Origin: Elusimicrobia bacterium CG1_02_56_21
GTDB taxonomy: Bacteria; Elusimicrobiota; Elusimicrobia; Elusimicrobiales; UBA9959
Direction: 5' to 3'
Assembly: GCA_001871115.1 (NCBI GenBank)
Contig: MNUR01000085.1
Location: forward strand, 22,060 to 86,059
Length of the DNA: 64,000 nucleotides
Each line of letters opens with the position of its first letter. The first letter of the stretch is position 1. This document shows, piece by piece, positions 23,095-48,432 of the stretch. The position numbers and the translations under genes are program-made. The notes under the pieces are model-generated. The model was given only the letters and a program-made list of their open reading frames with translations, did not search any database and was not told where the DNA came from.

Positions 23095-25029
23095 TTAAAC
23101 AAGCTGTTTTATCCTGGCAACCAGGTCCGTAATAGATTCTGTCATCTTGGAACAATCGATGTAGGTCTCTAAATTAAGTTTCTGCCTGCCGTCCGGAGAG
23201 CACCAGAAAACCCGAAAGAGCAGGCCTTCTTCGGTAAGCTCGGCGTGGGCGCCCAGCGGGGTGGCGCAGCCGCCTCCGAGGGTAGCTAGGAAAAGTCTTT
23301 CGCATTCGGCGCAGATGCGCGTGCGGGCATGGTCCAGCCGGCGGACCAGGCGCATGGTCTGCAGGTCGGCCGTGGCGGCCTCTACGGCTATAATTCCCTG
23401 GCCGGGGGCCGGAACAACTTCATCGGCGGTAAAAACCTGGGTGATCCTGTTTTCAAGGCCCAGGCGCTTCAGGGCGGCGTAAGCCACCACTATTGCGTCG
23501 CACTCGCCGCGGTCCAGCTTGGCCAGGCGGGTGTCCATATTGCCGCGCAGGGGGCAGAACACAGCGCCGGGCTTGAGCCTGGCTATCTGGAAGCGCCTCC
23601 GGGAAGAGCCGGTGGCGATCTTCGCCCCGGGAGGCAAATCCGCCAGGCTGCAGCCGGTGCGGGTAATAATAGCGTCGCGCGGATCCTCGCGCTTTAAATA
23701 AGCCCCTATCCTCAGGCCTTCGGCCAGGTCGCCGGGCAGGTCTTTAAGGGAATGCATGGCCAGCTTTATCCCGCCGTCCAGGAGGTCTCGCTCTATTTCT
23801 TTTACAAAAAGGCCTTTACCGTCCGCGGCTATAAGCTTCTCCACCGGATCGGTCAAAAAAATGTCGCCGCTGGTCTTTATGATCTTCTGGCTTATCTCTA
23901 CGCCCTCTTTCCTCACCAGGTCGCAAATGATATTAGTCTGCGCCAGGGCCAGGCGGGAGCCGCGGGTCCCTATCCTCAGGGGCTCGGTAAAAACCGCGGG
24001 GTCCACGGAGGAATCCTGCGAGAACTTCTCCCAGATCTCCGCGCTCTTGGCGTCTATTATGCCCTGCGCCTTCTTTATTTCCTCCGAGAGCTGGGCCAAA
24101 TTCTCGGCCACTATCCGCTCCAGGTCGTCGATATTGTAAAGGTAAACATTGGAAAGGCTGCCCACCTCGGGCTGGATATTGCGGGGCACCGAAATGTCCA
24201 CCAGGAAAATAGGGTTGCCGTGGCGCAGCGCCATTATCTTCTTCATCCCGTCTTTGGTTATTACGGGCTCGGAAGAAGAGGTGGAAACCAGGACCACGTC
24301 GGCTTCGGAGAGGGCGGTCTCGAGGTTCTCCCAGGGTACGCTCTGCGCCGAAAACTTAGCCGCCAGCTCCTGGCCTTTGGCCCGGGTACGGTTGATAACA
24401 GTAAGGGCGGCTTTCTTTTCAGCGAAGGCCGAGGCGGCGGCTTCGGCCATCTCGCCGGCGCCCAACAGCAGCACCTTGGCTTTGTCCAGGTCGCCGAAGA
24501 TGCGGCCGGCGTACTGCACGGCCACAAAAGCCACCGAGCGGCCGCCCTGGCTTATCTTGGTATTCGCGCGCACATGCTTGCCCACGCCTATAGCGCGCTG
24601 AAAAAGGGTATTGGTCAGGCGGCCGGTGGTTCCCGCGCTTTTGGCCCCGTAGTAGGAATCTTTAAGCTGGCCCAGGATCTCGTTCTCCCCCACCACCATC
24701 GAGTCCAGGCCGCAGGCCACATTGAGCAGATGGTCCATGGCCTCTTTGCCGGTCTTGCTGTACAAATGTCCGCCTGAAGACTTATTGTCGTCGTACTGGG
24801 ACTGGTCGCTTAAGAACCCTATCAGGGCCGTTTCGCAGTCTTTCTTTTTTCCCACGGCGTAAAGGTCCACGCGGTTACAGGTGGAAACCCAAACCAGCTC
24901 TTCCGCCGCCAGCTTGCCGCTGGCCAGAGCCCTGAGCAGCAGGCGCTTGCGCTCGGGGCTTATGCTGAAAGCCTCCCGTGTTTCCACGGTACAGGTTTTA
25001 TGAGAAAGGCCGACAAGAACTAGTTCCAT
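23095..25029 (-). CDS. hemA-hemC: Bifunctional glutamyl-tRNA reductase / hydroxymethylbilane synthase (HemA-HemC fusion)
   Basis: HemA: VSTCNRVDLY and NADPH site LLLGAGEMAE. HemC from about residue 347: LRIGTRGSRLALAQT...KTSGD...GNMDTRL...GGGCATPLG. One uninterrupted 644-aa ORF. Confidence 0.9.
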   Translation of the reverse strand: MELVLVGLSHKTCTVETREAFSISPERKRLLLRALASGKLAAEELVWVSTCNRVDLYAVGKKKDCETALIGFLSDQSQYDDNKSSGGHLYSKTGKEAMDHLLNVACGLDSMVVGENEILGQLKDSYYGAKSAGTTGRLTNTLFQRAIGVGKHVRANTKISQGGRSVAFVAVQYAGRIFGDLDKAKVLLLGAGEMAEAAASAFAEKKAALTVINRTRAKGQELAAKFSAQSVPWENLETALSEADVVLVSTSSSEPVITKDGMKKIMALRHGNPIFLVDISVPRNIQPEVGSLSNVYLYNIDDLERIVAENLAQLSEEIKKAQGIIDAKSAEIWEKFSQDSSVDPAVFTEPLRIGTRGSRLALAQTNIICDLVRKEGVEISQKIIKTSGDIFLTDPVEKLIAADGKGLFVKEIERDLLDGGIKLAMHSLKDLPGDLAEGLRIGAYLKREDPRDAIITRTGCSLADLPPGAKIATGSSRRRFQIARLKPGAVFCPLRGNMDTRLAKLDRGECDAIVVAYAALKRLGLENRITQVFTADEVVPAPGQGIIAVEAATADLQTMRLVRRLDHARTRICAECERLFLATLGGGCATPLGAHAELTEEGLLFRVFWCSPDGRQKLNLETYIDCSKMTESITDLVARIKQLV

Positions 25030-25042
25030 TGTTTAGTATTGC

Positions 25043-25906
25043 TCAGAAGAATTTATGATAAGCGATTACCCGGCTAGACAGCACCAGGGTTGCGGCTATA
25101 AGGATAAAACCGGCCACATTCGCCCAGGCGGCCTTGGTCCCGCGCCAGTCTCCGTACTTCCGGAGCGCCAGGTACAGGCCGTAAACGGCCAGGGTGGCCA
25201 GCGCCCCAAGTTCTTTAACGTCGGAGCCGGGCAGGCGGGAATACTTTACGTAAAGCTGCACGCTGGCAATTACAAAGCCGGTCAGAAAAAGAGGGAAACC
25301 TATTTCCACCAGCCGCCAGATAAGTTTATCCATGTCGCCTATGGAAGGCAGAGCGAAAGCCGCGTCATGGGATTTGCGGGTTCTGAGCTCCCTGTCCGAA
25401 AGCAGCAGGGAGGAACTAGCCCCGAAAGCGTTTATGAACAGGGCGTAGGAAACTATGAACAGGACATTATGCAGGGCTGAAAGGCCGCTCCTGGCCTGAG
25501 ACGAGAAAGCTTCAAGTCCGGGAACCGCGGTAAAAAGCGGGAACGCCAGCGCGATCAGGCTCCAGGGCAGGACGAAAACAAAAGTAAGGCCGGTACCCCT
25601 GCGCAGCTCAAGCAGCAGCAGCAGGGCGTTTACGCAAAGGCCGAGCGCCAGAACCATCCCCCGCGGCGTATTGAGCGGGGTGATATATAAATTCTCGGGG
25701 ACGATCCAGAAATAAAGGGTCAGCGCTATGAAAGCCGCCGCCTGGAGGATAACCGCGCCTCCCAGAAAAGCCAGCGCGGCTTTAAAAACTTTTTCTATCC
25801 GGTTGAAGACAAAGAATATCCCCGTAGCCAGGGCCAGTAGCGTAAAGCCGAAAGCCAGCCTTACGCAGAAGGAAGAGATCGCCGAAAAATCAGGAATATC
25901 GCCCAT
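25043..25906 (-). CDS. CcsA-family / HemX-like cytochrome c assembly membrane protein
   Basis: Polytopic protein with a CcsA-like C-terminal third. It sits next to hemA, as HemX does in hemAXCDBL operons. The ATG at 25906 lies 4 nt from the upstream stop. The longest ORF starts at 25999. Confidence 0.65.
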   Translation of the reverse strand: MGDIPDFSAISSFCVRLAFGFTLLALATGIFFVFNRIEKVFKAALAFLGGAVILQAAAFIALTLYFWIVPENLYITPLNTPRGMVLALGLCVNALLLLLELRRGTGLTFVFVLPWSLIALAFPLFTAVPGLEAFSSQARSGLSALHNVLFIVSYALFINAFGASSSLLLSDRELRTRKSHDAAFALPSIGDMDKLIWRLVEIGFPLFLTGFVIASVQLYVKYSRLPGSDVKELGALATLAVYGLYLALRKYGDWRGTKAAWANVAGFILIAATLVLSSRVIAYHKFF

Positions 25907-25910
25907 TGTA

Positions 25911-26663
25911 TCAGCGCTTGAACGCGGTTTTCCCCAGGATAACTGCGTAGCTGTAGCCGGAGCCGAAATCTTTATCTTTGGCAACGGTGCCGCGGGCAAT
26001 CACGGTCTCGCCCACTTTAACTACTTCGGAGGTGGTGGCCAGCAGGTCGTGAGTGGCGGCTTTAGCGTCGCCGGAACCGTCCTGGATATGCACCCAGTTG
26101 CGGTCCATGATCTCCGTGGACACCTTTACCACTTTCCCCCTGACGGAAACTGTCTTGCCGTCCAGTTCTTTCCGCTTGCTGAAGATTTCGGCGACGGTAT
26201 AACCGTCCTTACCTTCGGCTTTGGAGATCCTGACGGAGAGCTGGCCGGAGACTTTTCCATGGGAAGCCGCAATCTGGGCTGCCTGGGCCATATGCCCGCC
26301 CTGTGCGCTGCCGTCCGAGAATATGATCTTTTTAAAAGTCCGGTTCAGGGTCTTGCTGCGGAAGTCGTTCATTACTATGCCGCCGGCAAAATAAACTTCT
26401 TCGCCTACTTTCACCTTGCGCTGGGCCGTAGCCACCCAGACTGATTCCGTCCCCTGGGCCAGCCTGATATAAGTGTATCCGCCGGAATCCATGGTCTCGG
26501 CCACTTTGCCGGTCACGGTCTCCTGCGCGGCAGCGGGCATCATAGCTTCCGAGTGACCGGCTTCCCGGGCAGGATCCACGGCTTTGTCTTTGGCCCGCAG
26601 GAAAGTCATTACCGCAAAGCCGCAGACCGCGAAAACCACGGCAAAATAAATATTACGGCGCAT
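25911..26663 (-). CDS. Membrane-anchored protein with two OB-fold-like repeats, possibly NrfJ-related
   Basis: TM anchor IYFAVVFAVCGFAVMTF. Two repeats of the type GKVxxxxDSGGYTYIRL...VxxG / GKVVKVSTEIMDRNWVHIQDGSG. AGGAGG-like Shine-Dalgarno before the ATG at 26663. Confidence 0.45.
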   Translation of the reverse strand: MRRNIYFAVVFAVCGFAVMTFLRAKDKAVDPAREAGHSEAMMPAAAQETVTGKVAETMDSGGYTYIRLAQGTESVWVATAQRKVKVGEEVYFAGGIVMNDFRSKTLNRTFKKIIFSDGSAQGGHMAQAAQIAASHGKVSGQLSVRISKAEGKDGYTVAEIFSKRKELDGKTVSVRGKVVKVSTEIMDRNWVHIQDGSGDAKAATHDLLATTSEVVKVGETVIARGTVAKDKDFGSGYSYAVILGKTAFKR

Positions 26664-26695
26664 AAGTTCCTCCGGTGAATAGTACTTCTTAGATC

Positions 26696-27535
26696 TTAGC
26701 TTCTGCCATAACTGTGCAGGCCGGACATCAGGTAATTGACTCCGAAATAGGTGAACATAACCAGGACAAAGCCCCACAGCATAAGGCCGGCGAACTTCTT
26801 GTCTTTCCAGCCCTTGGTCCTGCGCAAATGAATAGCCACCGCGTAATAAAGCCAGGTTATCAAAGACCAGGTTTCTTTAGGGTCCCAGGACCAGTAAGAG
26901 CCCCAGGCCGAGTTGGCCCAGACCGCGCCGGTGATTATTCCCAGGGTAAGCAGCCAGAAACCCACCAGGCAGGCCCGGTAAACAAGAGATTCAAGGCTAA
27001 TTTTCTTCTCATCATGCTTTAACTTGCCCATGAAAGAATAAACCGCGGCCCCGAGAAAAGAAAGCAGCAGAGCGCCGTAACCGGTCATAACGGTGCTGAC
27101 ATGGATAAGCAGCCAGTTGGACTGCAGCGCCGGGACCAGCGGTGAGATATCAGATTCAAGGAAGGAAGCTCCGCCCAGGCTTAGCACAGCGACCAGGGCT
27201 GTCCAGGGGGCCAGCCACTCAATAGCGCGCCCGGGGACGGCCGCGTGCTTATGCCCTTTCCCGGCTTTTTCTACAGCGGAAAAATGCCAGAACAGCAAAT
27301 AGGCGCCTACAAAGGCCCACACCAGGAAAACCATGGATTCGTACTGGTTGGAGAGCGGCGCCCGGCCGGCAATATACCAGCGCGCGCCTATATGATAGGT
27401 GCTGGAAAGAAAACCGGCGAAGAGCGCGAAGATAGAGTATCTGAATTTCCCGGGCATGCTGAAAAGAAAACCGGTCAGCGTAGCCGCCATAGCCACCGCG
27501 TAAAAAACAAAAGAAGCTTTAAGTGATATTTCCAT
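26696..27535 (-). CDS. ccsA: System II cytochrome c biogenesis protein CcsA/ResC
   Basis: WWD motif WGSYWSWDPKETWSLITW and conserved His residues. 1-nt TAATG overlap with ccsB. Confidence 0.9.
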   Translation of the reverse strand: MEISLKASFVFYAVAMAATLTGFLFSMPGKFRYSIFALFAGFLSSTYHIGARWYIAGRAPLSNQYESMVFLVWAFVGAYLLFWHFSAVEKAGKGHKHAAVPGRAIEWLAPWTALVAVLSLGGASFLESDISPLVPALQSNWLLIHVSTVMTGYGALLLSFLGAAVYSFMGKLKHDEKKISLESLVYRACLVGFWLLTLGIITGAVWANSAWGSYWSWDPKETWSLITWLYYAVAIHLRRTKGWKDKKFAGLMLWGFVLVMFTYFGVNYLMSGLHSYGRS

Positions 27536-32704: not shown

Positions 32705-32872
32705 TTAGTTCTCCTGTTTTTTAAAGACCAAGGTCTTATTTGTACTGCGCGTATGTGCCGCAAAAGGCAATACAGTACCAATACACTAGCAAACATGCGG
32801 CAACCGCGTATTAATGTAAAGCAATTGCCGCATTGATTTAAGTTAACCGGTTTAAGCGCGGTCAGCCGCTAA

Positions 32873-33139
32873 GGGCTTGTTAAAGAATAACTGACGCATT
32901 TGGCTGAGCTGATTTTGGAGCGAGCCGAAGCGGCGTGAAGCGACACGTACTCCATGTACTTTAGCGGAACGCCGCAAAGGCGCAGCCCAAAAGCGGCTCA
33001 GCCCCCCGGGGGAGGCCCATCTTTGAACCGGCTGCCGCGTTGCTCCTCACTCACAGACCACCGGTATGCTCGTTCATCGCGCCTTGCATCCGGATCAAAT
33101 ATGGGCCTCCAAATGCGTCAGTTATTATTTAACAAGCCC
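32873..33139. repeat. MITE-like nested palindromic element, family C. It shares its core with family A.
   Basis: 31-bp terminal inverted repeats GGGCTTGTTAAAGAATAACTGACGCATTTGG (32873-32903) and 33109-33139, with 1 mismatch. Inner palindromes GCTGAGC...GCTCAGC and GGAGGCCCAT...ATGGGCCTCC. The core TTTTGGAGCGAGCCGAAGCG...GCGCAGCCCAAAAGCGG matches the reverse complement of family A. Confidence 0.8.
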
Positions 33140-33852
33140 TAACGCCGTGAAACCTGCTCCAGCCTGGCTTTGTCTTTCACCGCGACGTTCCGGCCGGCGA
33201 CGGAGATCCAGCCTTTCTTGCGGAATTCGGCCAGCAGGCGGCAAAGAACTTCCGGGGAGGTCCCGAGCATTTTGGCCAGGTCTCCCCTGGTCTCCGGGAA
33301 CTGTACGCTGGCAGAGCCCTTGGCAACGGCCCTCTCCACTATATATTTAGCCAAGCGTCCTCTTACGGTTTTAAAGCCGAAGTCCAGCAGCTGCTCCTCG
33401 GAGCGGCCAAGCTCCGCGGCAAAGCGGGTCAGCAGGGCGCGGCAGACCTGAGGGATCTCCAGGAAATTTTTCTCGAAATAGGCCCCGTCCAGGAAACAGA
33501 TCCGGCAGTCTTCCAGCGCTTCGCCAGTGCCCAGATAGGCTTCACCGGCAAGGAAAGAGCGGTCCCCCAGCAGGGCCGGGGCCTCTATCACACGGGGAAT
33601 GCTGGAATGAAGCCCCGTATCCGTCCTTATTATTTTAACCCGGCCTGTACAGAGGAAATACACGCCGAAAGGGCGATTGCCCTCGTAAAAAATAATATTG
33701 CCTTTGCGGTAATCATTGGTTATCCTCTTTTTGCAGAAGCCCTCCCATACCGCGTCAGGAACTGCGGCGAAGACCGGCATTTTCAGCATCGGGCATTTGC
33801 ACTTTGCCGCTTCAAAGGTTTCACACTTACACTTCGGACTGATAGTTTTCAT
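33139..33852 (-). CDS. Crp/Fnr-family transcriptional regulator with an N-terminal Cys cluster
   Basis: cNMP-binding-type beta-roll (IIFYEGNRPFGVYFLCTGRVKI) and C-terminal HTH (RGDLAKMLGTSPEVLCRLLAEFRKKG). N-terminus has SPKCKCETFEAAKCKCP. Confidence 0.85.
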   Translation of the reverse strand: MKTISPKCKCETFEAAKCKCPMLKMPVFAAVPDAVWEGFCKKRITNDYRKGNIIFYEGNRPFGVYFLCTGRVKIIRTDTGLHSSIPRVIEAPALLGDRSFLAGEAYLGTGEALEDCRICFLDGAYFEKNFLEIPQVCRALLTRFAAELGRSEEQLLDFGFKTVRGRLAKYIVERAVAKGSASVQFPETRGDLAKMLGTSPEVLCRLLAEFRKKGWISVAGRNVAVKDKARLEQVSRR

Positions 33853-36365: not shown

Positions 36366-37652
36366 TCATAAAAGCAGGGCCTGTTCCGCGGCTTTCAGCG
36401 TCGCTTCTATGTCCGCGGGCTTGTGGGCCGTGGAAATGAAGCAGGTCTCGAACTGGCTGGGCGGCAGGTAGACGCCGCGCTCAGCCATCGCCCAGAAATA
36501 GTCGGCGTAGCGCTTCGTATCGCAGCCGGCGGCGCCGGTCCAGTCTTTCAGCGGGCCTTTAGAGAAGAAAAGGGTGAACAGCGAGCCCACCCGGTTAAGA
36601 GTAAGCGGCAGGTTCCCCTCCCTTATAATAAGGCGCAGGCCTTTCTCCATGGCCTGGCCGGAAGCCTCCAGCTGTTTATAAACTCCAGGCTTTGAAAGCT
36701 TTTTGATCGCGGCGCAGCCGGCCGCCATGGCCAGGGGATTGCCGGAAAGCGTGCCGGCCTGGTATACCTTCCCGGCCGGGGAAAGGTGCTTCATTATTTT
36801 CTTGCCGCCGCCGTAGGCGCCGACTGGCAGGCCGCCGCCTATTATCTTCCCGAGAGTGGTCAGGTCCGGCTTGATGCCGTACAGGCCCTGCGCGCCGCCG
36901 AAGCCGACGCGGAAGCCGGTGATGACTTCGTCGAAGATGAGGAGAGCGCCGGTAGCGGTGCAGGTCTTCCTCAGCGCGGCCAGGAAGCCCGGCTCCGGAA
37001 GCATCAGGCCCATATTGGCGGCTACGGGCTCCACTATCACGCAGGCGACTTCTTTGCCGCTGCGCTTCATATAGGCCCGGAAGCCTTCGATATCGTTATA
37101 TTCCAGCGAGACGGTATTGCGCGCGAAAGCCGCCGGAACGCCGGGGCTGGAAGGAGAGCCGAAAGTAGCCGCTCCGGAGCCCGCTTTCACCAGCAGGGAA
37201 TCGGCGTGGCCGTGGTAGCAGCCGGTAAATTTGACTATTTTATCCCGGCCGGTATAACCGCGGGCCAGCCGGATGGCGCTCATTACGGCCTCGGTGCCGG
37301 AGGAGACGAAACGCAGCTTCTGGATAGAGGGCAGGGCTTTCTTTATCATTTCGGCCAGCACGGCTTCGGCCTCGGTGGGAGCCCCGTAGGAAGTTCCTTT
37401 GCCGATGGCGCCCGTGATAGCCTTCTGTATGTCCGGGTCGGCGTGGCCGAGTATCATCACGCCCCAGGAAGTGACATAGTCCACATAAGAGTTCCCGTCC
37501 ACATCCTTAAGCCGCGAGCCTTTGGCTTCTTTTATAAAGAGAGGCGTTCCGCCTACGGCGTTAAAGGCCCTGACGGGGCTGTTGACCCCTCCGGCCAGAT
37601 GCTTAAGGGAATAGTTCCAGAGTTTTTTGGATTTATCAGTTTTGAGTTTCAT
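36366..37652 (-). CDS. hemL: Glutamate-1-semialdehyde 2,1-aminomutase
   Basis: Class III aminotransferase with a typical HemL N-terminus (GGVNSPVRAF) and FDEVITGFR. Confidence 0.95.
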   Translation of the reverse strand: MKLKTDKSKKLWNYSLKHLAGGVNSPVRAFNAVGGTPLFIKEAKGSRLKDVDGNSYVDYVTSWGVMILGHADPDIQKAITGAIGKGTSYGAPTEAEAVLAEMIKKALPSIQKLRFVSSGTEAVMSAIRLARGYTGRDKIVKFTGCYHGHADSLLVKAGSGAATFGSPSSPGVPAAFARNTVSLEYNDIEGFRAYMKRSGKEVACVIVEPVAANMGLMLPEPGFLAALRKTCTATGALLIFDEVITGFRVGFGGAQGLYGIKPDLTTLGKIIGGGLPVGAYGGGKKIMKHLSPAGKVYQAGTLSGNPLAMAAGCAAIKKLSKPGVYKQLEASGQAMEKGLRLIIREGNLPLTLNRVGSLFTLFFSKGPLKDWTGAAGCDTKRYADYFWAMAERGVYLPPSQFETCFISTAHKPADIEATLKAAEQALLL

Positions 37653-39063: not shown

Positions 39064-39531
39064 TTAAAAGTACGCCATGCTGGTCTTTTTAAATTCTCTT
39101 AAGCTCTCAAGAACCAGGTACTCTTTGGCCCCGGTCTTTTTTACCAGTCCGCTGACCACCTTTAAGATTTCGGCGCGGCTGCGGCCGTGGACCATAGTAT
39201 AAAGGTTATAGGACCAGCCCGGGCGGACAACGCGCTCATAGCAGTGGCTTATGGCCGGGGAGGCTGCGGCGGTCTTGCCGAAAGAAATAGCCCGGCCGGC
39301 CGGGATCTTCCAGGCTACCATAGCGTTGGCAAAATAACCGGCGCGCTTATGCCTGACTATAGCGCGCACGCAGCGCAGCACTCCGGATTTTTTGAATTTC
39401 TTAAGCGCGGCCAGGAATTCTTCCTCTTTAATACCCAGGCCGGCCGCCATCTTTTTAAAAGGCTCGGGCTCAAGAGGGATATCTCCCTGGAGGGCGCGGA
39501 CTATGGCTTCTTCGGTCTTCTTTAATTTCAT
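39064..39531 (-). CDS. Sirohaem decarboxylase subunit (AhbA/AhbB, NirD/L/G/H family, AsnC-like)
   Basis: IVRALQGDIPLEPEPFKKMAAGLGIKEEEFLAALKKFKKSGVLR and SHCYERV. ATGA start/stop overlap with the upstream paralog at 39528-39531. The longest ORF starts at 39669. Confidence 0.75.
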   Translation of the reverse strand: MKLKKTEEAIVRALQGDIPLEPEPFKKMAAGLGIKEEEFLAALKKFKKSGVLRCVRAIVRHKRAGYFANAMVAWKIPAGRAISFGKTAAASPAISHCYERVVRPGWSYNLYTMVHGRSRAEILKVVSGLVKKTGAKEYLVLESLREFKKTSMAYF

Positions 39532-40118
39532 ATGGGAAAGAAAGTCTTTATCTTGAACATTGTTTTCACCGGGAAGGAATAACATTTCTCCACCCCGGGC
39601 AGCCGCCTGAAAACGGCTATCTGCCGGTTCACCCCGGCCATGGTTCCCCGCACTCCTACGGTAAACCAAAGGTTCATTTCCCCCGCCCTTTCATAACAAT
39701 GGGTAACTCCGGGGAATTTAGAAATTTCTTTAGCTACGGCCGCCAGCCGGGAGGGTTTCACCCGCGCACCGGCGAGCGTGGAAGAAAAACCCAGCTTGCG
39801 GGTTTCAAAGCTGCCGCCTATCCTGCGGACCACGCCTTTTTTCTTATAAGTTTTAAGCACTTTAAGGACATCGGCCCCCGTCACGCCTATCCCGGCGCCC
39901 AGGGCTTCAAAAGGGCGGCTGCAGGCGGGAATATCCGTCTGGGCCGCGTCCAGGACCAGTTTTTCTATTCTTGTAGCCCGAATTCCGCTTGCGGAATTCC
40001 CCGCGCAGCGGGCGGAAGGCCCAGCGCTATGCGCGCCCGGCCCGACGGGGCGTATGCCTCCCGCAGGGCGCCCGCTATGCGGGCGGTAAACTTCACCAGA
40101 AGTTTTCAGGCTAGCCAT
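39528..40118 (-). CDS. Sirohaem decarboxylase subunit (AhbA/AhbB family) with a low-complexity N-terminal extension
   Basis: LVLDAAQTDIPACSRPFEALGAGIGVTGADVLKVLKTYKKKGVVRRIG and THCYERA. The only ATG overlaps the hemB end by 13 nt. Confidence 0.7.
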   Translation of the reverse strand: MASLKTSGEVYRPHSGRPAGGIRPVGPGAHSAGPSARCAGNSASGIRATRIEKLVLDAAQTDIPACSRPFEALGAGIGVTGADVLKVLKTYKKKGVVRRIGGSFETRKLGFSSTLAGARVKPSRLAAVAKEISKFPGVTHCYERAGEMNLWFTVGVRGTMAGVNRQIAVFRRLPGVEKCYSFPVKTMFKIKTFFPI

Positions 40119-41092
40119 TTGGCGGCGTCCTTGGCGTGGTAGGTTATTATCATGTCGGCCCCGGCCCTTTTAATAGAGGTCAGGATCTCCAGGACCATGG
40201 CTTTCTCGTTTATCAGGCCTTTCTGCGCCGCCGCCTTCACCATCGAATACTCGCCGCTCACATTGTAAGCCGCGGTCGGGAACTGGAATTTTTCTTTTAC
40301 AGCGCGCAGGATGTCCAGGTAGGCCAGGGCCGGCTTCACCATTACGATATCGGCGCCCTGCCTCACGTCGAGCTCCACCTCGCGCAGCGCCTCGAGATAA
40401 TTGGCCGGGTCCATCTGGTAGGTTTTCCTGTCCCCGAACTGCGGGGCGGACTGGGCCGCTTCGCGGAAAGGCCCGTAGAAAGCGGAAGAATATTTGGCGG
40501 CGTAGGAAAGTATGCCTACGTCCTGGAAACCTTTCCCGTCCAGGGCTTTCCTTATCGCCCCGACGCGGTTGTCCATCATATCGGAAGGAGCGACCAGGTC
40601 GGCGCCGGCTTCGGCGTGCACCAAAGCTTCTTTGACCAGCAGCTCGAGCGTGCGGTCATTGTCCACCAGCATTTCGCCGGCGCGGTTCTTCCTGACGACG
40701 CCGCAATGCCCGTGGCTGGTGTATTCGCAAAGGCAGACGTCGGTCATCACGGCGATATCCGGCACGGACTTCTTTATCAGCCTGACGGCCTCCGGCACGG
40801 GGCCCCCGGGGTCATAGGCTTCTTTCCCGAGCGGGTCTTTTTTAGAGGGCAGCCCGAAAAGTATCAGCGAGTTTATGCCGAGGGCGCGGCATTTCGCGGC
40901 TTCGGCCGCCGCCTCGTCCACGGACAGGTGGAAGCAGCCGGGCATGGAAGAGATCTCTTTTTTGTATTTTTTACCGGGGACCACGAAAAGCGGGTAGACG
41001 AAATTGTCGGCGGTAACGCGGGTTTCCCTGAACATGTCGCGGGCCCATTTCAGGTTCCTGAGTCTGCGAGGGCGGGCTGAATCGGAAAGCAT
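40106..41092 (-). CDS. hemB: Porphobilinogen synthase (delta-aminolevulinate dehydratase), Zn type
   Basis: CLCEYTSHGHCG zinc site, SDMMDNRVGAIR, MVKPALAYLD. Confidence 0.95.
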   Translation of the reverse strand: MLSDSARPRRLRNLKWARDMFRETRVTADNFVYPLFVVPGKKYKKEISSMPGCFHLSVDEAAAEAAKCRALGINSLILFGLPSKKDPLGKEAYDPGGPVPEAVRLIKKSVPDIAVMTDVCLCEYTSHGHCGVVRKNRAGEMLVDNDRTLELLVKEALVHAEAGADLVAPSDMMDNRVGAIRKALDGKGFQDVGILSYAAKYSSAFYGPFREAAQSAPQFGDRKTYQMDPANYLEALREVELDVRQGADIVMVKPALAYLDILRAVKEKFQFPTAAYNVSGEYSMVKAAAQKGLINEKAMVLEILTSIKRAGADMIITYHAKDAAKWLA

Positions 41093-41142
41093 GTGGTCTT
41101 CTCCTTGAAGTCTGGCGGCTGTTAGCCTGCGGGTTCGGGCCT

Positions 41143-41251
41143 CCAGGGAACTTCCCCCGTGAACCCTGGAAGATGGAAACCCTTGCGTCGGTTTCCCCCC
41201 GTCAGGCGGGGCCCCCCCTTCCGCAAAGGGTTCACGGGGGAAGTTCCCTGG
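41143..41251. repeat. Structured palindromic intergenic element, family B, copy 2
   Basis: Perfect 25-bp arms CCAGGGAACTTCCCCCGTGAACCCT (41143-41167) and AGGGTTCACGGGGGAAGTTCCCTGG (41227-41251). Same core as copy 1, different outer arm sequence. Confidence 0.75.
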
Positions 41252-41261
41252 CGGACCTCCA

Positions 41262-43332: not shown

Positions 43333-43782
43333 TTATTTCGCTTCCTCTTTCTTCTCTTCGCTCTTCTTCCTGTCCACGTCTACGTGGGGGCTGTGGCAGT
43401 CGCGGCAGTCGCGGCCTTTGCCGTTTATCATCTTTTTCTTATCGGCCATGGGGGCTTTCATGTGAAGGCTGCCCGCGCCGTGGCAGGCTTCGCACTGCAC
43501 GTTGGCCATTTCCGGGGTAGCTTCCATGGAGACAAAGCCGCCGGTTTCGCCCATGCCGGTAACATGGCACTTTACGCACTCGGGTTTTTTCCGGTCTTCG
43601 GCGGTAAGAGCATCTATCGCCGTAGCATGCTTCATCTTCATCCAGGTAGCGTGCTGCTTGGAATGACACATTTTGCACTTGCCTGCGCCGAGGTACGTAG
43701 CTGTTGCGGGCGCGTCCTGGGCCACAACTATTCCGGCTATGCCCATGAACACCAGACACCCGAGCAATGATATCGTTTTCAT
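43333..43782 (-). CDS. Periplasmic tetrahaem c-type cytochrome
   Basis: Signal peptide MKTISLLGCLVFMGIAGIVVAQ. CKMCH, CVKCH, CEACH, CRDCH. AGGAGG Shine-Dalgarno before the ATG at 43782. The longest ORF starts at 43866. Confidence 0.8.
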   Translation of the reverse strand: MKTISLLGCLVFMGIAGIVVAQDAPATATYLGAGKCKMCHSKQHATWMKMKHATAIDALTAEDRKKPECVKCHVTGMGETGGFVSMEATPEMANVQCEACHGAGSLHMKAPMADKKKMINGKGRDCRDCHSPHVDVDRKKSEEKKEEAK

Positions 43783-43996: not shown

Positions 43997-45319
43997 TTAA
44001 GGGTTTTCGGAGGGAGCCTTGTCGCGGCCCCATCTGCCGGGGGAAACCCCGGTTTTAAGGTTTCCGGACTGGACTGCGGCTTTATCCCCGCTTATCCCGG
44101 CAGAATGCGGCTCAGTATCAGCCTGCAGCCGGCCGGTCAAGATAGGAACGGCTATTTTAAGTATTAAGGTGTAAATAAAGAAACCAAGGGCCCAGATTCC
44201 CGCGCAGATCAGGATTTCGTTATAGGTAGGCAGATATTCGACTATCTCGCCCAGGGGATTGGGAATAAAAGCCGGGATTATAAAACCCATCCCTTTCTCT
44301 ATCCAGACCCCTATTATAGCCAGGACGCAGGCAGCGTTGAGCCATTTAAGTTTGCGGGAAGCCGGCAGCATCAAAAGCAGGAAAGCGGTCACGTTCATCC
44401 CCAGCGCGGTCCAGATCCAGGGAACCAGCGCGCTATGTCCGTGCAGGCCGAACAGGAGATATTTAATATGCGCCACATGCTGGGTCTGCATGTAAAACTC
44501 TTTAAAGACTTCGCTGAGAAAAAGAAAAATATTTATCGCCATCGCTACCTGTACCACGTCCCTCAGCCGCAGCACCGCCCCGTCCAGGATATTATAGGAA
44601 GTATAGCGCCGCACCAGCTGGAGAATGAGAATAAGGAAGGCGGGTCCCGCCGTGAAAGCCGAGGCCAGGAAACGCGGCGCGATAATGGAAGAATGCCAGA
44701 AAGGACGCCCGGCCAGGCCCTGGTAGAGAAAAGCCGTAACGGTATGAATGCTTACGGCCCAGACTATTGAAAGCAGGACAAAAGGGATATAGAGGAGCTT
44801 GAGCGGCTCCCGCTTTAAAAAACGCATATAAAGCAGGTACCCGGCGACATAAGCGTTAAGGAAAAGATAACCGTTTAAGACTATAACATCCCAGGTAAGC
44901 AGGGAGCTGGGCCAGTTAAAATTTCCCAGCGGCGGCGGCAGCATATGCCAGACCCTTTCCGGGCGCCCCAGGTCCACGGTTACGAACAGCATGGCCATTA
45001 TAAGCGTGGCAACGGCCAGGATCTCGCCGAAAACCACCACATCGTGCATATGATGGTCGTGATAGATATAAACCGGGATAACCATCATTACCGCCGCGGC
45101 GGCCATGCCCACCAGGAAGGTGAAATTGGCAATATAAAGGCCCCAGGAGACATGATCCGACATCCCCGTGGTCCCGAGACCGTGCACGAACTGCACGCAA
45201 TAAGCGTTGATCCCGGCCAGGGTAATAAGCGCAAGGGCCGACATCCAGGCGTAATAGCGCCAGTCGCCGTTCAGGACTTCCCCTGCGGAAAGCCGGAAAA
45301 ATCTGAGAAGATTAGACAT
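43997..45319 (-). CDS. NrfD/PsrC-family integral membrane quinol-interacting subunit
   Basis: About 10 TM helices with a NrfD-like N-terminus (WGLYIANFTFLVGMAAAAVMMVIP). The ATG at 45319 overlaps the FeS gene end by 8 nt. Confidence 0.8.
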   Translation of the reverse strand: MSNLLRFFRLSAGEVLNGDWRYYAWMSALALITLAGINAYCVQFVHGLGTTGMSDHVSWGLYIANFTFLVGMAAAAVMMVIPVYIYHDHHMHDVVVFGEILAVATLIMAMLFVTVDLGRPERVWHMLPPPLGNFNWPSSLLTWDVIVLNGYLFLNAYVAGYLLYMRFLKREPLKLLYIPFVLLSIVWAVSIHTVTAFLYQGLAGRPFWHSSIIAPRFLASAFTAGPAFLILILQLVRRYTSYNILDGAVLRLRDVVQVAMAINIFLFLSEVFKEFYMQTQHVAHIKYLLFGLHGHSALVPWIWTALGMNVTAFLLLMLPASRKLKWLNAACVLAIIGVWIEKGMGFIIPAFIPNPLGEIVEYLPTYNEILICAGIWALGFFIYTLILKIAVPILTGRLQADTEPHSAGISGDKAAVQSGNLKTGVSPGRWGRDKAPSENP

Positions 45320-46265
45320 CGGTGTAATAATAGAACCTGGGCACCGTGCCAAGTTCTTCCTTAAAGATATATACGCGCTTGTCGCGGATAATGCTGGAGA
45401 TCTCGCTGTCAGGGTCCAGCATATTCCCGAATTTCCGCGAGCCCGTGGGGCAAACTTCCAGGCAGGCCGGGTATTTCCCCGCCCGCGTCCGCTGCAGGCA
45501 GAAAGTGCATTTCTCCATTGTGCCTTTAGGCCTGGGCCGGTTGGAGAGATAATCTATCTTCGGATTAAAATCTTTTTCAGGCAGATAGGGCTCTTTGAAA
45601 TTAAAACGCCTGGCATGGTAGGGACAGGCGGCCTCGCAGTAGCGGCAGCCGATGCACCAGTTATAATCCACCACCACTATCCCGTCGGGCTCCCTCCAGG
45701 TGGCTTTAACCGGGCAGACCTTGGTGCAGGGCGATGTTTCACAATGATGGCACTGCACCGGCATGTAGTAATGGCCCTCTTTAGGGACCTGGCCCTCGTA
45801 ATCGATGCTGGATTTCTCCACATCGATATTCCCCTTCTCCATCTGCAGCACGCTTATATATTGTATCTGGGGGTCCCGGGACTGGTTATTTTCTTTCATG
45901 CAGGCGTAAACGCATTTCCGGCAGCCCACGCAGCGCCCGATATTAAGGGCGTAAGCGTACTGCACCCCGTCCATAGGCGGAAGGGCGGTCAGTTGCGGGG
46001 CGGCCCCGTATTTTTCCTGCAGCTGAGAGGCTATCCTTTCAAGGACCTCTTTCTTCTGGCCGGGAGTAAGCTCGGTAAAATGTTTTTGCAGCATCTCTCG
46101 CAAAGGAGGGAATCCGCCAAAATCCCTCAGGGGAGAGAGCGCGGCCGCCGCGGCTGCGGCGGCGCCGGCGGCAGCCACGGCGAGGAACTGCCTGCGGGTA
46201 ACGCCGGAGCCATAGGGCTTGGGATGGGAAAAGGGGGCTCCTTGCGGATCTTTTTCTTCGGCCAT
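45312..46265 (-). CDS. Tat-exported 4x[4Fe-4S] ferredoxin subunit (NrfC/PsrB/DmsB-like)
   Basis: Twin-arginine signal VTRRQFLAVAAAGAAAAAAAA. Cys clusters CVGCRKCVYAC, CHHCETSPCTKVCP, CIGCRYCEAACP, CTFC...CLEVCP. TAATG overlap at 46265. Confidence 0.85.
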   Translation of the reverse strand: MAEEKDPQGAPFSHPKPYGSGVTRRQFLAVAAAGAAAAAAAALSPLRDFGGFPPLREMLQKHFTELTPGQKKEVLERIASQLQEKYGAAPQLTALPPMDGVQYAYALNIGRCVGCRKCVYACMKENNQSRDPQIQYISVLQMEKGNIDVEKSSIDYEGQVPKEGHYYMPVQCHHCETSPCTKVCPVKATWREPDGIVVVDYNWCIGCRYCEAACPYHARRFNFKEPYLPEKDFNPKIDYLSNRPRPKGTMEKCTFCLQRTRAGKYPACLEVCPTGSRKFGNMLDPDSEISSIIRDKRVYIFKEELGTVPRFYYYTDV

Positions 46266-46873
46266 TAATGAGTCTCTCCCGGAGTATTGTGTTTTAACGG
46301 GGCCGGAGCGGCCTTCATCGGCTTGAAAGCCGGGGAGTGGGGGTCGTGGCAGGCAATGCAGACCAGGTTCTTTTGCTCGCCAGCGGTTTTGTCCCAGTAA
46401 CCATTGCGGCGCCCATGGGTCCCTCTCTGCCAGTCCCTGTACGTGGGGCCGTGGCATTTAGCGCAAAGCGTTTCCACTTTGGAAAAAGGTATCTGCCCGC
46501 CGCCATTGGCCGCAAAAAAATCCCGCTTGCCGTTATTATGGCAGTTGAAGCAGCGGTTGTTCGAACCGTGCTTTAAAACCACCTTATTATGTATTTCGGG
46601 GGCTGTCCTGGGGTCCTGGTCGGTGGGGTCCGAGTGGCAGTCTCCGCAGGCCATGCCCATGGTCCCGAGTTTTTTTCCTACTGTCCTGACGGGGGAAATA
46701 TCGTAATACTCGGGCTTCATTACAAAAGCGCGGGGGCCCTGCTCAGAGGTGTGCCTGTTGGTATAGAAGAACCAGGCTGCCGCAACGCAAGCCGCGCCTA
46801 CCGCTATAAGCAGCAGCGTGGGGATTTCCGTATTACGGAAAGCGTCGGTTTTTTTCCAGTCTTGCTCTGACAT
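46265..46873 (-). CDS. Membrane-anchored tetrahaem c-type cytochrome
   Basis: N-terminal TM IPTLLLIAVGAACVAAAWFFY. CGDCH, CFNCH, CAKCH, CIACH. Confidence 0.8.
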   Translation of the reverse strand: MSEQDWKKTDAFRNTEIPTLLLIAVGAACVAAAWFFYTNRHTSEQGPRAFVMKPEYYDISPVRTVGKKLGTMGMACGDCHSDPTDQDPRTAPEIHNKVVLKHGSNNRCFNCHNNGKRDFFAANGGGQIPFSKVETLCAKCHGPTYRDWQRGTHGRRNGYWDKTAGEQKNLVCIACHDPHSPAFKPMKAAPAPLKHNTPGETH

Positions 46874-46949: not shown

Positions 46950-47291
46950 TCAGGGCTTTTGCGCAGCGCCGGGAGTTTTTACAAATTTAACCAGTTCCGC
47001 TATCTGCTTGTCGCTCAGCTTATTTTTAAAGGCGGGCATTTTCCCTTTCCCGTCATGAATCGCCTTTGCTAGGTCAGCGTCAGCCTTTGCCTGTACTTCC
47101 TCGCTGGTAAGGTCCATCTCCGAGGGAGCTACTTTAAAGACTTTAGTCATTGCAGGGACGCCTTTTGCGTCTTTGCCGTGGCAGGAAACGCAAAGGCTTT
47201 TATAATTCCGGGAGGCTTCAGCGGCAAAAGACGGCATAGCCTGCCCGCAAAGCAGCAGAATTCCCGAGATCGCGGCCGTTCTTTTTATCAT
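46950..47291 (-). CDS. Monohaem class I c-type cytochrome
   Basis: Signal peptide, CVSCHGKDAKG and a distal Met in GKMPAF. Confidence 0.85.
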   Translation of the reverse strand: MIKRTAAISGILLLCGQAMPSFAAEASRNYKSLCVSCHGKDAKGVPAMTKVFKVAPSEMDLTSEEVQAKADADLAKAIHDGKGKMPAFKNKLSDKQIAELVKFVKTPGAAQKP

Positions 47292-47439
47292 GATGTTTTT
47301 CTTGCCGACTATTTAAAGCGTAAAGCCCTGCTGTCCGGTCAGGCAGATATCAGCAGGTTCCGGAACATTTTTAAATTATACAATTTCATCCCCTCCAGGT
47401 AAAGAGAACTTCGATATAATCACTACTAATATTCTGCTA

Positions 47440-48195
47440 TTACGCCGCATTCTCGCCCAGCGGAGGGCGCTGACCGCCTTTGCCGGCAAACCTTGATATC
47501 CAGATGCTCAGCTCGTAAAGGACCAGCATAGGCGCCGTAAAAAGAAGCATGTTAAAAATATCGGAGGTAGGGGTGATAACGGCCGCAACTATAAGTATCG
47601 CTACTATCGCGTAACGGTATTTGCTTCTCAGCAGGCGGTGGTCGATGATCCCCAGCCTTGTAAGTATATAGCTTAGAACCGGCATTTCAAAAACGAGGCC
47701 GCAGCCCATAACGGTCCAGGTGACGAAAGAAATATAGTTCTGGGCCGAGATTAGCGGCTGAAGCTCTTCTCCCGCAAAGCCGATAAGGAAAGCGATAGCC
47801 GGAGGGATCAGGATAAAATAAGAGAACAGGACTCCGAGCGAAAAAGAGAGCATTACCCCCCCCACAAAGACAAAAACATTGCTTTTCAGTTTCGAACCGG
47901 CGGCCGGCTCTATGAATTTCCAGGCCTGGAACAGCAGAAAAGGCATGGACAGTATCAGGGCGGAGATAAATGAAATATTAAGGTAGACCGCCAGGGCTTC
48001 GGTAGGCGAAAAGAAGACCAGCTTGTCCACTACCCCTGAGATAGGCTGCTTTATGACCTTAAACAGCAGCGAGGAATAATTGAAGGACAAGCCGAAAGCG
48101 CAGGCGAAAAAAGCGAGCGAATACAGCAGCCTGCGTCTTAATTCATCCAGGTGGGACGGTAAAGGAAGTACGGGGTCCATGAGGAGTAAAGACAA
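47440..48195 (-). CDS. tatC: Twin-arginine translocase subunit TatC
   Basis: HLDELRRRLLYSLAFFA..., six TM helices, typical TatC layout. Confidence 0.9.
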   Translation of the reverse strand: MSLLLMDPVLPLPSHLDELRRRLLYSLAFFACAFGLSFNYSSLLFKVIKQPISGVVDKLVFFSPTEALAVYLNISFISALILSMPFLLFQAWKFIEPAAGSKLKSNVFVFVGGVMLSFSLGVLFSYFILIPPAIAFLIGFAGEELQPLISAQNYISFVTWTVMGCGLVFEMPVLSYILTRLGIIDHRLLRSKYRYAIVAILIVAAVITPTSDIFNMLLFTAPMLVLYELSIWISRFAGKGGQRPPLGENAA

Positions 48196-48246
48196 AAAAA
48201 CCGGGGCGGAAGCTTTAGCCTGGCCTTTATCTATACCTGCTTTAAA

Positions 48247-48432
48247 TTATTTCAGCAGTTTTTCGTCAGCCGGGGATTTCTCTTCCGTGGTTTCCCTCAT
48301 GCCTTTTTTGAATTCTTTTATGGTCGTGGCTACGGACTTGCCCAGCTCGGGAAGCTTGTTGGCGCCGAAAAGAAGAACGCAGATAAACACTATAAAAAGC
48401 ATTTCCGGCGTATCCATTCCTAATATTCTCAT
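48247..48432 (-). CDS. tatA: Twin-arginine translocase subunit TatA/E
   Basis: LFIVFICVLLFGANKLPELGKSVATTIKEFKKG. Confidence 0.85.
   Translation of the reverse strand: MRILGMDTPEMLFIVFICVLLFGANKLPELGKSVATTIKEFKKGMRETTEEKSPADEKLLK

Follow-up and report, generated by a model that had tools for sequence, protein, structure and literature searches.

The locus examined here lies in a 64,000-nt stretch of DNA, referred to below as the window, on contig MNUR01000085.1 (positions 22,060 to 86,059) of Elusimicrobia bacterium CG1_02_56_21, a metagenome-assembled genome (MAG) of an uncultured groundwater member of the Elusimicrobiota, order Elusimicrobiales. Between window positions 23095 and 48432, both the listing of open reading frames (ORFs) and our own greedy gene call gave 25 ORFs on the minus strand, which encode haem synthesis enzymes, System II cytochrome c maturation proteins, Tat components, a quinone module, several cytochromes, a Crp/Fnr-family regulator, and a decahaem-barrel pair of the MtrAB kind (Table 1). 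An earlier note on this DNA had described 25 co-directional genes with mostly short or overlapping junctions and had read them as a self-sufficient, potentially transferable cassette for extracellular electron transfer (EET). The gene count and the spacing were confirmed. In our judgment, the block is probably a lineage-specific chromosomal neighbourhood of at least four independently conserved head-to-tail modules, on the strand that bears almost every gene of this region, not a single operon or mobile element, and its components are all of known kinds.

Once gene starts had been refined, the 24 internal junctions comprised 16 that overlapped or measured 51 nt or less and one of 76 nt, so that 17 of 24 were at or below 76 nt. 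The seven large junctions were 148, 214, 169, 167, 434, 308, and 168 nt long; inserted repeats were found in three of them, and a truncated cytochrome remnant lies beside one. The minus-strand run is wider than the block, extending from approximately 21465 to 60227 (about 39 kb, of which ~12 kb lies outside the block), and its genes include those for a rhomboid protein, an NmrA-like protein, an AAA ATPase, tRNA-Arg, alanyl-tRNA synthetase (AlaRS), a phosphate transporter, and a two-component system. Spacing at the edges is also short, with 42 nt between the NmrA-like gene and tatA and 47 nt between hemA::hemC and the next gene. Because strand and spacing continue past both edges, the block is delimited by function only, not by structure. 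Public contig DCOM01000073.1 is identical, and independent gene calls concur over the stretch designated L036, from CobA-HemD to HemA::HemC; the barrel and CydA-like proteins are 100% identical to copies in GCA_002322375.1. Almost all of the functions that had been proposed for the 25 genes were supported by profile hidden Markov models (HMMs), folds, or PDB matches. The 25911-26663 product has no family, and the 217-aa cytochrome is a remnant. A further member, the CydA-like::cytochrome c fusion at 37684-39024, was absent from the earlier list.

We read the block as modular in part because its large gaps coincide with module edges, with promoter- or terminator-like sites, and with inserted repeats. 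Module 1 (48432-43997) would comprise tatAC, a monohaem cytochrome c, and a translationally coupled complex of anchored tetrahaem, iron-sulfur (FeS), and NrfD-type subunits. Module 2 (43782-33139) would be the clade-conserved core, made up of the c554-like cytochrome, the Ahb haem b pathway, the CydA-like di-haem-b::cytochrome c protein, and the Fnr-like regulator. Module 3 (32704-29715) would be an MtrAB/MtoAB-type pair in which the decahaem cytochrome is threaded through a 26-strand barrel, and module 4 (28584-23095) would hold the System II genes ccsBA, the 25911-26663 gene, hemX, and hemA::hemC. The number of transcription units is probably five to eight. Consensus scans, which are weak evidence, located a promoter-like site at 47403-47375, in the 148-nt gap before the monohaem cytochrome c gene, and a sigma-70-like site with 11/12 matches at 43907-43878, in the 214-nt gap before c554; a terminator-like hairpin lies at 28685-28669, in the 168-nt gap before ccsB.

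Loci recovered from other genomes, designated here by L numbers, showed these modules both apart and together; the nearest relatives of the source are Elusimicrobiales/Elusimicrobiaceae MAGs. The core of module 2, in the order c554-sirC-cobA/hemD-hemB-ahbA-ahbB-cydA-like-hemL-ahbD-ahbC-crp, is the part kept in relatives at genus or family level, at 74-97% protein identity in L001, L002, L005, L006, and L048, with c554 conserved upstream of sirC in the first four of these. Upstream of c554 in L001 and L005 are beta-oxidation/electron transfer flavoprotein genes on the opposite strand, with no nrfCD and no tat. The counterpart of module 1 stands elsewhere: L129 (NrfD 67% identical) has the order NmrA-cytochrome c-Band7-tetrahaem-NrfC-NrfD, after which come genes for a c7-like cytochrome and molybdoenzymes, only the tetrahaem-NrfC-NrfD core is found in L130, and the anchored tetrahaem cytochromes of these two loci are 48-53% identical to the window copy. 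In L131 and L132 (79% identity) the order is NrfC-NrfD-TatA-TatC, with the tat genes downstream of nrfD. Since tat adjoins the NrfCD module repeatedly and in differing orders, this linkage is recurrent. Module 4 occurs as CcsB-CcsA-HemX-HemAC alone in L052 and L056, an amino-acid permease gene lying upstream of ccsB in the latter; in L054, hemX-hemAC stands beside hydrogenase genes, and in L053, hemAC is followed by an NmrA-like gene.

The decahaem-barrel pair is found in still other surroundings, with orthologues at 51-69% identity. The pair in L042 lies between glycosyltransferase genes, that in L045 beside a sigma-54 two-component system, and that at 9129-12130 of L043 (69% and 51% identity) between a cold-shock gene and trpB-trpA plus aro genes; PRAI, IGPS, and trpD genes are upstream of the L043 pair, which is thus inside an amino-acid biosynthesis neighbourhood. 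The moving unit is accordingly this two-gene pair, not the 25-gene block. Within the clade, a conduit array always follows crp and its content varies, as seen in five distinct genomes: one to three pairs, drawn from three types, occupy the position of module 3, in some loci together with a CbcL-like cytochrome (Table 1). The decahaem cytochromes of the three types are 33-37% identical to one another, BLAST finds no similarity between the type 1 barrel and those of types 2 and 3, and the haem genes beside these variable arrays are 84-97% identical between close relatives. Contigs of the source population (L036-L041, L049, and L050) were the only ones to yield all 25 genes in this order. The second outcome that the earlier note had said would refute its proposal, a one-off juxtaposition of separately regulated operons, was therefore observed for the block taken whole, but some of the links within it do not fit that description. 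No ORF with at least four CXXCH motifs was present in any of 51 HemA-centred loci from other lineages (each of at least 8 kb, 866 kb in all), which argues that the concentration of haem and cytochrome genes seen here is not due to chance.

The regulator gene that closes module 2 encodes a Crp/Fnr-family protein, as had been proposed, with matches to both PF00027 and PF13545. Orthologues and paralogues share its N-terminal Cys motif and C116xC118. The recognition helix, E-V-L-C-R, is close to the E-x-x-S-R of Escherichia coli FNR, which reads TTGAT. An FNR-type box, TTAACTTAAATCAA, was found at 32833-32846, 142 nt upstream of the decahaem start. Boxes of the form TTGnnTTAAATCAA lie 90-199 nt upstream of every decahaem gene of the clade, across all three conduit types (loci L001, L005, L006, and L046), and one of this type also precedes the CbcL-like gene. 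Across 77 kb of these relatives' loci, TAAATCAA occurs nine times, seven of them no more than 250 nt ahead of a decahaem gene, and the box is absent before orthologous decahaem-barrel pairs in other contexts. In the window, the 14-mer (one mismatch allowed) and the 8-mer core were found before the decahaem gene and otherwise at 56390 only, the latter site being probably fortuitous. An FNR/CRP box common to all sub-blocks was considered and rejected, as the box occurs in the block only before the decahaem gene. The regulator may thus switch the conduit genes through this putative binding site, and the haem, ccs, tat, and nrfCD genes would not be under the decahaem box.

Support for the conduit itself came from both sequence and fold, in agreement with the decahaem/porin MtrAB-like pair proposed earlier. 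The decahaem protein scored 177.1 bits against TIGR03508 (DmsE family), just under the cut-off of 192.2, and its best PDB match by phmmer was MtrA (6r2q_A, E 1.8e-32), which makes it a homologue and not a trusted-cut-off member. The 703-aa barrel itself gave no Pfam match; PF11854 (MtrB_PioB) was matched by 27 of its 36 homologues. Its AlphaFold2 model (predicted local distance difference test score, pLDDT, 79.4; predicted template-modelling score, pTM, 0.73) has 26 strands, and the best PDB fold match was MtrB (6r2q_B, E 1.4e-18, TM 0.65/0.69); the next-best folds reached TM 0.46 at most, with E-values at least eight orders of magnitude weaker. A profile of the barrel family found nothing among PDB sequences, so MtrB was reached by fold comparison only. 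No extracellular decahaem lipoprotein of the MtrC/OmcA type is present in the window. The HMM support that the earlier note had called for was thus obtained for MtrA/MtrB, NrfCD, and Ahb, for MtrB by way of homologues and for Ahb partly with scores under the cut-offs.

The Elusimicrobiota pair resembles the MtoAB/PioAB/MtrAB core of Sideroxydans, Rhodopseudomonas, and Shewanella in having the decahaem gene followed by the large barrel gene, and it shares with MtoAB and PioAB the composition of a two-gene pair without an MtrC-type surface cytochrome. Unlike those systems, it lies near no gene for MtrC, MtoD, or CymA, has an FNR-type box ahead of it and a haem biosynthesis operon beside it, and is represented in relatives by arrays of up to three diverged pairs. 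The porin-cytochrome (Pcc) loci of Geobacter (orfR-ombB-omaB-omcB) are similar in their tandem units, in an adjoining transcription factor, and in a copy number that varies between genomes; however, the periplasmic cytochrome of a Pcc unit is octahaem, its porin is unrelated, and it includes a surface lipoprotein with 12 haems, whereas the units here are MtrAB-type pairs with an Fnr-family regulator.

Downstream of the barrel gene, the 217-aa ORF proved to be the 5'-truncated remnant of a multihaem cytochrome gene. It has no signal peptide, and an in-frame stop falls inside a lost CXXCH. Its relatives are 270-700 aa long and match through their C-terminal ~210 residues only; homology to a 341-aa relative starts at 29502, directly after the stop, and the first 102 residues of that relative are unmatched. 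The 308-nt gap between the remnant and the barrel gene holds no coding-strand ORF of at least 80 aa. This region is probably a deletion scar at the place where relatives hold further conduit pairs. Of the mono-, tetra-, and multihaem soluble cytochromes listed in the earlier note, the monohaem and the c554-like tetrahaem proteins therefore stand, and the "multihaem" one is this remnant. Two other explanations for the ORF were set aside: a surface partner of the conduit, given that it has no signal peptide and represents the C-terminal part of another multihaem family, and a relic of the CbcL-like cytochrome of relatives, to which it shows only marginal similarity at the level of haem motifs.

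The CydA-like::cytochrome c fusion lies among the haem genes, between ahbB and hemL, and this position is conserved across the Elusimicrobiales clade. Its AlphaFold2 model (pLDDT 82.5) aligned to CydA chains with TM values of 0.59-0.69, and the alignment to PDB 5doq_A covered the conserved His positions. Residues H22, H128, H180, E102, C387xxCH, and M427, which include the b-haem histidines, are invariant in 42 homologues. No CydB partner, as in cytochrome bd oxidase, adjoins the gene in any of 35 loci. Cable bacteria, Zixibacteria, Brocadiaceae, and Anaerolineae encode the same architecture as a solitary gene amid unrelated neighbours. The CydA homologue of cable bacteria is closest in kind: it is 36-44% identical, its domains are arranged alike, cydB is not next to it, and it likewise has the haem-ligand histidines and the CXXCH/Met of the c domain; the ahbB-CydA-like-hemL position, in contrast, is confined to the Elusimicrobiales clade, the gene being a lone one in cable bacteria, Zixibacteria, and others.

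Profile searches supported HemA-HemC, HemL, HemB, CobA-HemD, a SirC-like protein, AhbA/B, and two NirJ-family radical SAM enzymes, all as previously proposed. The sirohaem decarboxylase pair AhbA/AhbB is present, AhbB above its cut-off and AhbA slightly under, and the AhbC and AhbD radical SAM proteins belong to the right family, with both under their equivalog cut-offs. The claim that all steps from glutamyl-tRNA to haem b are encoded was not borne out in full, as the scan of window ORFs gave no separate sirohydrochlorin ferrochelatase (CbiX, SirB, or CbiK). In the HemA::HemC fusion, the HemA part ends at approximately residue 346 and HemC replaces the usual C-terminal region. The two are likewise fused (644-711 aa) in the close relatives L051-L054, and 21 loci from other lineages carry hemA as an ORF of its own, usually 411-438 aa long. 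Two known arrangements invite comparison: Bacillus hemAXCDBL, in which hemA also adjoins a CcsA-like hemX, and the sirohaem-dependent (Ahb) clusters of sulfate reducers and archaea, in which cobA-hemD, sirC, ahbA/B, ahbC, and ahbD are also grouped. Similar hem/ahb sub-arrangements and hemA-hemX pairs turn up often in the metagenomic loci of other phyla, where a CcsA-like gene beside hemA is widespread. Unlike the known clusters, the locus described here has hemA and hemC in one polypeptide, it embeds a tetrahaem cytochrome, the CydA-like::cytochrome c gene, and an Fnr-like regulator, and its haem genes are divided into two parts by the conduit and ccsBA.

A side observation concerns hemA::hemC in L053, where a ChaN-type haem-binding protein (PF04187) is encoded two genes away, at 3657-4916 (-). 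The NmrA/DUF2867 gene next to tatA (window 48475-49938, minus strand) recurs next to these modules, standing beside cytochrome c-NrfCD in L129, hemA::hemC in L053, and cytochrome c-c554-hem in L008.

The quinone module of the earlier note, an NrfC/NrfD-type quinol module with an anchored tetrahaem cytochrome, was upheld by Pfam, NCBIfam, and PDB evidence. The FeS protein at 45312..46265 had DsrO as its best NCBIfam match (162.5 bits, cut-off 200), and the best PDB sequence matches of the NrfD-type subunit were to ActC of alternative complex III (ACIII; 6f0k_C at 2e-15). The tetrahaem and nrfC genes overlap by 1 nt, and nrfC and nrfD by 8 nt. The same order of overlapping genes for an anchored tetrahaem cytochrome, a Tat-dependent FeS protein, and an NrfD-type protein is seen in Cbc4 of Geobacter sulfurreducens, in the ActABC core of ACIII, and in DsrJOP. 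The module has the architecture that defines the Cbc4-type (CbcSTU)/ACIII-core modules (Cbc4 architecture in Geobacter: bioRxiv 10.1101/2025.04.14.648717), a comparison made at the level of architecture. It differs from these systems in having no ActDEF, no DsrM/DsrK/DsrJ, and no molybdopterin partner, and here it is flanked by tatAC and a monohaem cytochrome c gene. Identity as DsrMKJOP was rejected, since only the O and P subunits have counterparts here, with no DsrM, DsrK, or trihaem DsrJ, and the cytochrome is an anchored tetrahaem protein.

For maturation and export, TatA and TatC were matched by PF02416 and PF00902, and the CcsB, CcsA, and HemX/CcsA-like proteins were each recovered by profile, HemX weakly; the System II genes ccsB(resB) and ccsA overlap by 1 nt. 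The 25911-26663 product matched no family above threshold in profile searches, and its gene is inserted between ccsA and hemX only in the source species, being absent from that place in L052 and L056. No CcdA/DsbD or ResA/CcsX thiol-reduction partner was found among the window ORFs scanned, and it may be encoded elsewhere in the genome. Sec genes are missing from the block. c-type apocytochromes are exported by Sec, not by Tat. The FeS protein carries a TRRQFL twin-arginine motif, and by this Tat signal the Tat genes serve the FeS subunit.

Three of the large gaps contain repeats. Two copies of a long-hairpin element occupy the gaps in the haem cluster. Copy 2 has an RNA fold of -87.5 kcal/mol (z -5.8) and is absent at its site in L001 and L005; copy 1 has a fold of -95.7 kcal/mol (z -7.9), and at its hemL/ahbD site the element is present in L048 (96% identity), partly present in L004, and absent in L001 and L005. 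The copies share an inner core, and their outer stems have diverged yet remain complementary within each copy. The element could be a small mobile palindrome or an mRNA-processing or stabilising hairpin. A riboswitch or other known RNA in the 167- and 169-nt gaps was excluded, as Rfam gave only tRNA-Arg in the window and the hairpins fill these gaps. The third repeat resembles a miniature inverted-repeat transposable element (MITE) and lies at the crp/decahaem junction, where its arms (32872-32903 and 33109-33140) are 97% complementary; a weak partial match was found at 57961-58048. The same junction holds a gene with a faint Zeta_toxin match plus a crp 3' fragment in L046 and L048, and a second crp paralogue in L001 and L006.

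Table 1. Features of the block in transcription order, followed by the content of the conduit array in relatives. Positions refer to the window unless a locus is named.
Feature	Position	Strand	Support or remark
tatA, 61 aa	48247..48432	-	PF02416 TatA_B_E, 54.6 bits; NmrA-like gene 42 nt upstream
tatC, 251 aa	47440..48195	-	PF00902, 196.6 bits
Monohaem class-I cytochrome c, 113 aa, signal peptide	46950..47291	-	one CXXCH; PF13442/PF00034
Membrane-anchored tetrahaem cytochrome, 202 aa (CbcS/ActA-like position)	46265..46873	-	four CXXCH; one N-terminal hydrophobic helix
NrfC/DsrO/CbcT-type four-cluster FeS protein, Tat signal, 317 aa (refined start)	45312..46265	-	Fer4_11 and related Pfam
NrfD/DsrP/CbcU/ActC-type quinone-interacting membrane subunit, 440 aa	43997..45319	-	PF03916, 135.8 bits; NF045798 DsrP, 423.5 bits (cut-off 350)
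c554-like periplasmic tetrahaem cytochrome, 149 aa (refined start)	43333..43782	-	four CXXCH; PF13435, 63 bits
SirC/CysG-N-terminal-like precorrin-2 dehydrogenase, 183 aa	42773..43324	-	PF13241, PF14824; TIGR01470, 141.9 bits (cut-off 62.3)
CobA (SUMT)-HemD fusion, 504 aa	41262..42776	-	PF00590, PF02602
Long-hairpin element copy 2, about 125 nt	41137..41257	.	cobA-hemD/hemB gap; 31-nt arms 94% complementary
HemB (porphobilinogen synthase)	40106..41092	-	PF00490, 495.7 bits
AhbA-like sirohaem decarboxylase subunit	39528..40118	-	NF040708, 127.2 bits (cut-off 140); PF22451, PF17805
AhbB sirohaem decarboxylase subunit, 155 aa	39064..39531	-	NF040707, 167.6 bits (cut-off 125); start per public gene call
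CydA-like membrane protein with C-terminal monohaem cytochrome c, 446 aa	37684..39024	-	PF01654 (residues 14-234); PF13442; neighbours ahbB and hemL
HemL (glutamate-1-semialdehyde aminomutase)	36366..37652	-	PF00202, 245 bits
Long-hairpin element copy 1, about 125 nt	36232..36361	.	hemL/ahbD gap; 31-nt arms 94% complementary
AhbD-like radical SAM/SPASM enzyme, haem b synthase candidate	35095..36198	-	best NCBIfam TIGR04545, 351.9 bits (cut-off 500)
AhbC/NirJ1-like radical SAM enzyme	33883..35058	-	TIGR04054, 509.8 bits; TIGR04546, 480.2 bits (cut-offs both 650)
Crp/Fnr-family regulator, N-terminal CxCx7CxC	33139..33852	-	PF00027, PF13545
MITE-like insertion, 269 bp, 32-nt terminal inverted repeats	32872..33140	.	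begins at crp stop codon
FNR-type box TTAACTTAAATCAA with second half-palindromic site	32811..32846	-	120-142 nt upstream of decahaem start
MtrA/MtoA/PioA-like periplasmic decahaem cytochrome, 279 aa	31865..32704	-	ten CXXCH; signal peptide
MtrB/PioB-like 26-strand outer-membrane barrel, 703 aa	29715..31826	-	signal peptide; C-terminal ...AYKF
5'-truncated multihaem cytochrome remnant, 217 aa	28753..29502 (ORF 28753-29406)	-	four to five haems; homology reaches 29502
CcsB/ResB (System II), short form, 349 aa	27535..28584	-	PF05140, 123 bits
CcsA (System II haem-handling/lyase subunit)	26696..27535	-	PF01578, 159 bits; TIGR03144, 228.2 bits (cut-off 187.6)
Membrane-anchored protein, 250 aa, two weak OB-like repeats	25911..26663	-	GGYTYIRL... 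/ ...WVHIQDGSGD
HemX-like CcsA paralogue, 287 aa	25043..25906	-	PF01578, 60 bits (weak)
HemA::HemC fusion, 644 aa	23095..25029	-	TIGR01035, 344 bits (residues 4-346); TIGR00212, 298 bits (residues 351-625)
Array after crp, window			type 1 only, then truncated remnant
Array after crp, L046/L047	L046 4105-17089		types 1, 2, and 3, then CbcL-like 11-haem/cytochrome b fusion and another 11-haem protein
Array after crp, L001	16828-21308		two type 2 copies, near-identical tandem duplicate
Array after crp, L006	15383-17351		type 2
Array after crp, L005	15924-20893		type 3 and CbcL-like protein

Several observations bear on mobility. Genes for integrase, transposase, or conjugation were not found in the window, no repeats bracketing the block were detected, and the flanks consist of housekeeping genes. 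The only tRNA gene of the window lies 3.3 kb outside the block, and the barrel has no plasmid homologue. The block has a GC content of 0.53-0.58 and the flanks 0.56; in tetranucleotide usage, a mild deviation was seen in two modules alone, nrfCD/tat and the conduit, in a test that is biased in that the flank windows are included in the reference. A mobile island was accordingly rejected for want of an integrase, a transposase, a tRNA border, flanking repeats, a plasmid homologue, and a marked shift in composition. Two observations on the flanks stand apart from the block. The tRNA-Arg(CCG) gene at 51780-51854 (-) overlaps a 136-aa ORF at 51430-51840 without a family match, and this ORF is probably spurious; a gene pair for an ECF-type sigma factor and a zf-HC2 anti-sigma factor at 506-1976 (+), at the left end of the window, is unrelated to the block.

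These parts can be assembled into a plausible pathway. The Ahb route would provide haem b, CcsBA would attach haem to Sec-exported apocytochromes, and Tat would export the FeS subunit. The Cbc4-like complex of module 1 would exchange electrons between the quinone pool and periplasmic cytochromes, and this complex, the CydA-like::cytochrome c protein, or both may join the quinone pool to the monohaem c and c554-like cytochromes. By analogy with MtrAB, these periplasmic cytochromes would in turn exchange electrons with the barrel-held decahaem, which would reach the cell surface. Module 3 is most likely switched by the adjoining regulator on oxygen or redox state through the FNR-type box, so that the Fnr-like protein would turn the conduit on when oxygen or redox conditions change. 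The clustering may reflect selection for co-inheriting a high-demand haem supply with its cytochrome consumers. In its most specific form, the proposal would be that of a dedicated EET locus in one Elusimicrobiales clade, switched by oxygen or redox state, in which the Fnr-type regulator, whose gene closes the anaerobic (Ahb) haem operon, drives exchangeable MtrAB-type conduits via TTGnnTTAAATCAA and the CydA-like::cytochrome c protein, co-transcribed with the haem genes, serves as the quinol-to-periplasm coupler; we offer this version tentatively and regard it, in this full form, as rather unlikely.

The alternative that survives best keeps the same parts and reverses the flow: a conduit of the MtoAB/PioAB kind would take up electrons from Fe(II) or another external donor, and the Cbc4-like complex or the CydA-like::cytochrome c protein would pass them to the quinone pool or an oxidant. 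The absence of an MtrC-type surface cytochrome, as in the MtoAB and PioAB pairs (PMC6831781, PMC4412085), the CbcL/MtoC-like cytochrome behind the array in relatives (PMC6295460), and the groundwater origin of the source metagenomes are consistent with it. Control of the Fnr type, however, usually goes with anaerobic respiration, the window encodes no terminal oxidase and no Cyc2, and MtrAB-type conduits are reversible in vitro, so that gene content cannot decide. Uptake is a real possibility, if on balance a doubtful one.

An accidental adjacency of unrelated housekeeping operons and respiratory genes on a strand-biased chromosome, without functional meaning, would explain why the ~39-kb same-strand run also holds the AlaRS, phosphate transporter, and rhomboid genes, why hem/ahb clusters and hemA-hemX pairs often occur by themselves, and why the whole-block order is unique to one population. 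It would not explain why five distinct genomes have a decahaem-porin array behind the haem core and its Fnr-like gene, why Tat stands beside the NrfCD module in two different orders, why the haem operon of the clade consistently encloses the c554-like and CydA-like::cytochrome c genes, or why 0 of 51 HemA loci elsewhere contain multihaem ORFs, and we consider it improbable.

That the block is one co-regulated, self-sufficient cassette able to confer EET on a new host is highly improbable: the single strand of its 25 genes with 17 of 24 junctions at or below 76 nt, its exceptional functional coherence, the lack of multihaem genes in the HemA loci of other lineages, and the mild tetranucleotide deviation of modules 1 and 3 speak for it, but the modules are separate in relatives and the entire order is found in one population only, the FNR box in the block stands at the decahaem promoter alone and seven gaps measure 148-434 nt, the strand run and short spacing extend into housekeeping genes on both sides, neither integrase, transposase, nor plasmid match was found, and the block lacks a chelatase, a CcdA/ResA-type pathway, Sec, and an extracellular cytochrome and counts a truncated remnant among its members. 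Neither the self-sufficiency nor the transferability as a single unit that the earlier note had suggested was therefore borne out.

For the neighbourhood of independently conserved modules, which remains the reading we prefer, a few points weigh on the other side. No extracellular cytochrome is encoded in the block, and sequence does not decide between electron flow outward, with reduction of Fe(III) or humics, and uptake from Fe(II). The transcription units rest on spacing and consensus scans, and the sigma-70 consensus may not suit the phylum. L008 suggests an NmrA-cytochrome c-c554-hem adjacency in a second genome, so that a link between modules 1 and 2 may be commoner than L001 and L005 indicate. 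Most of the related contigs are short, and adjacencies such as ccsBA behind the arrays of other species are out of view.

The earlier note knew of no described locus of this kind, and literature searches likewise found none. The main comparative genomics study of the Elusimicrobiota makes no mention of multihaem cytochromes or iron, and elsewhere only CbcL homologues are tabulated (PMC6295460). What is new here is the presence of MtrAB-type conduits in the Elusimicrobiota, which extends the range of this conduit; the grouping, specific to this clade, of an Ahb haem operon with an Fnr-like regulator and with a conduit array that varies in content and has a box in common; and the embedded CydA-like::cytochrome c gene together with the HemA::HemC fusion. 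The fixation of the CydA-like::cytochrome c gene inside a haem operon offers a new clue to the role of its counterpart in cable bacteria. For genome mining, the locus is a caution that a long, coherent, same-strand block can be a mosaic, and that close relatives tell an operon or island from a neighbourhood. An Fnr-like protein and a conserved box before each of three diverged conduit types also make a concrete regulatory hypothesis. If the tentative version with a dedicated, switched EET locus held, a phylum known for fermentation and for respiration with oxygen or nitrate would be able, in addition, to respire extracellular substrates or to feed on them.

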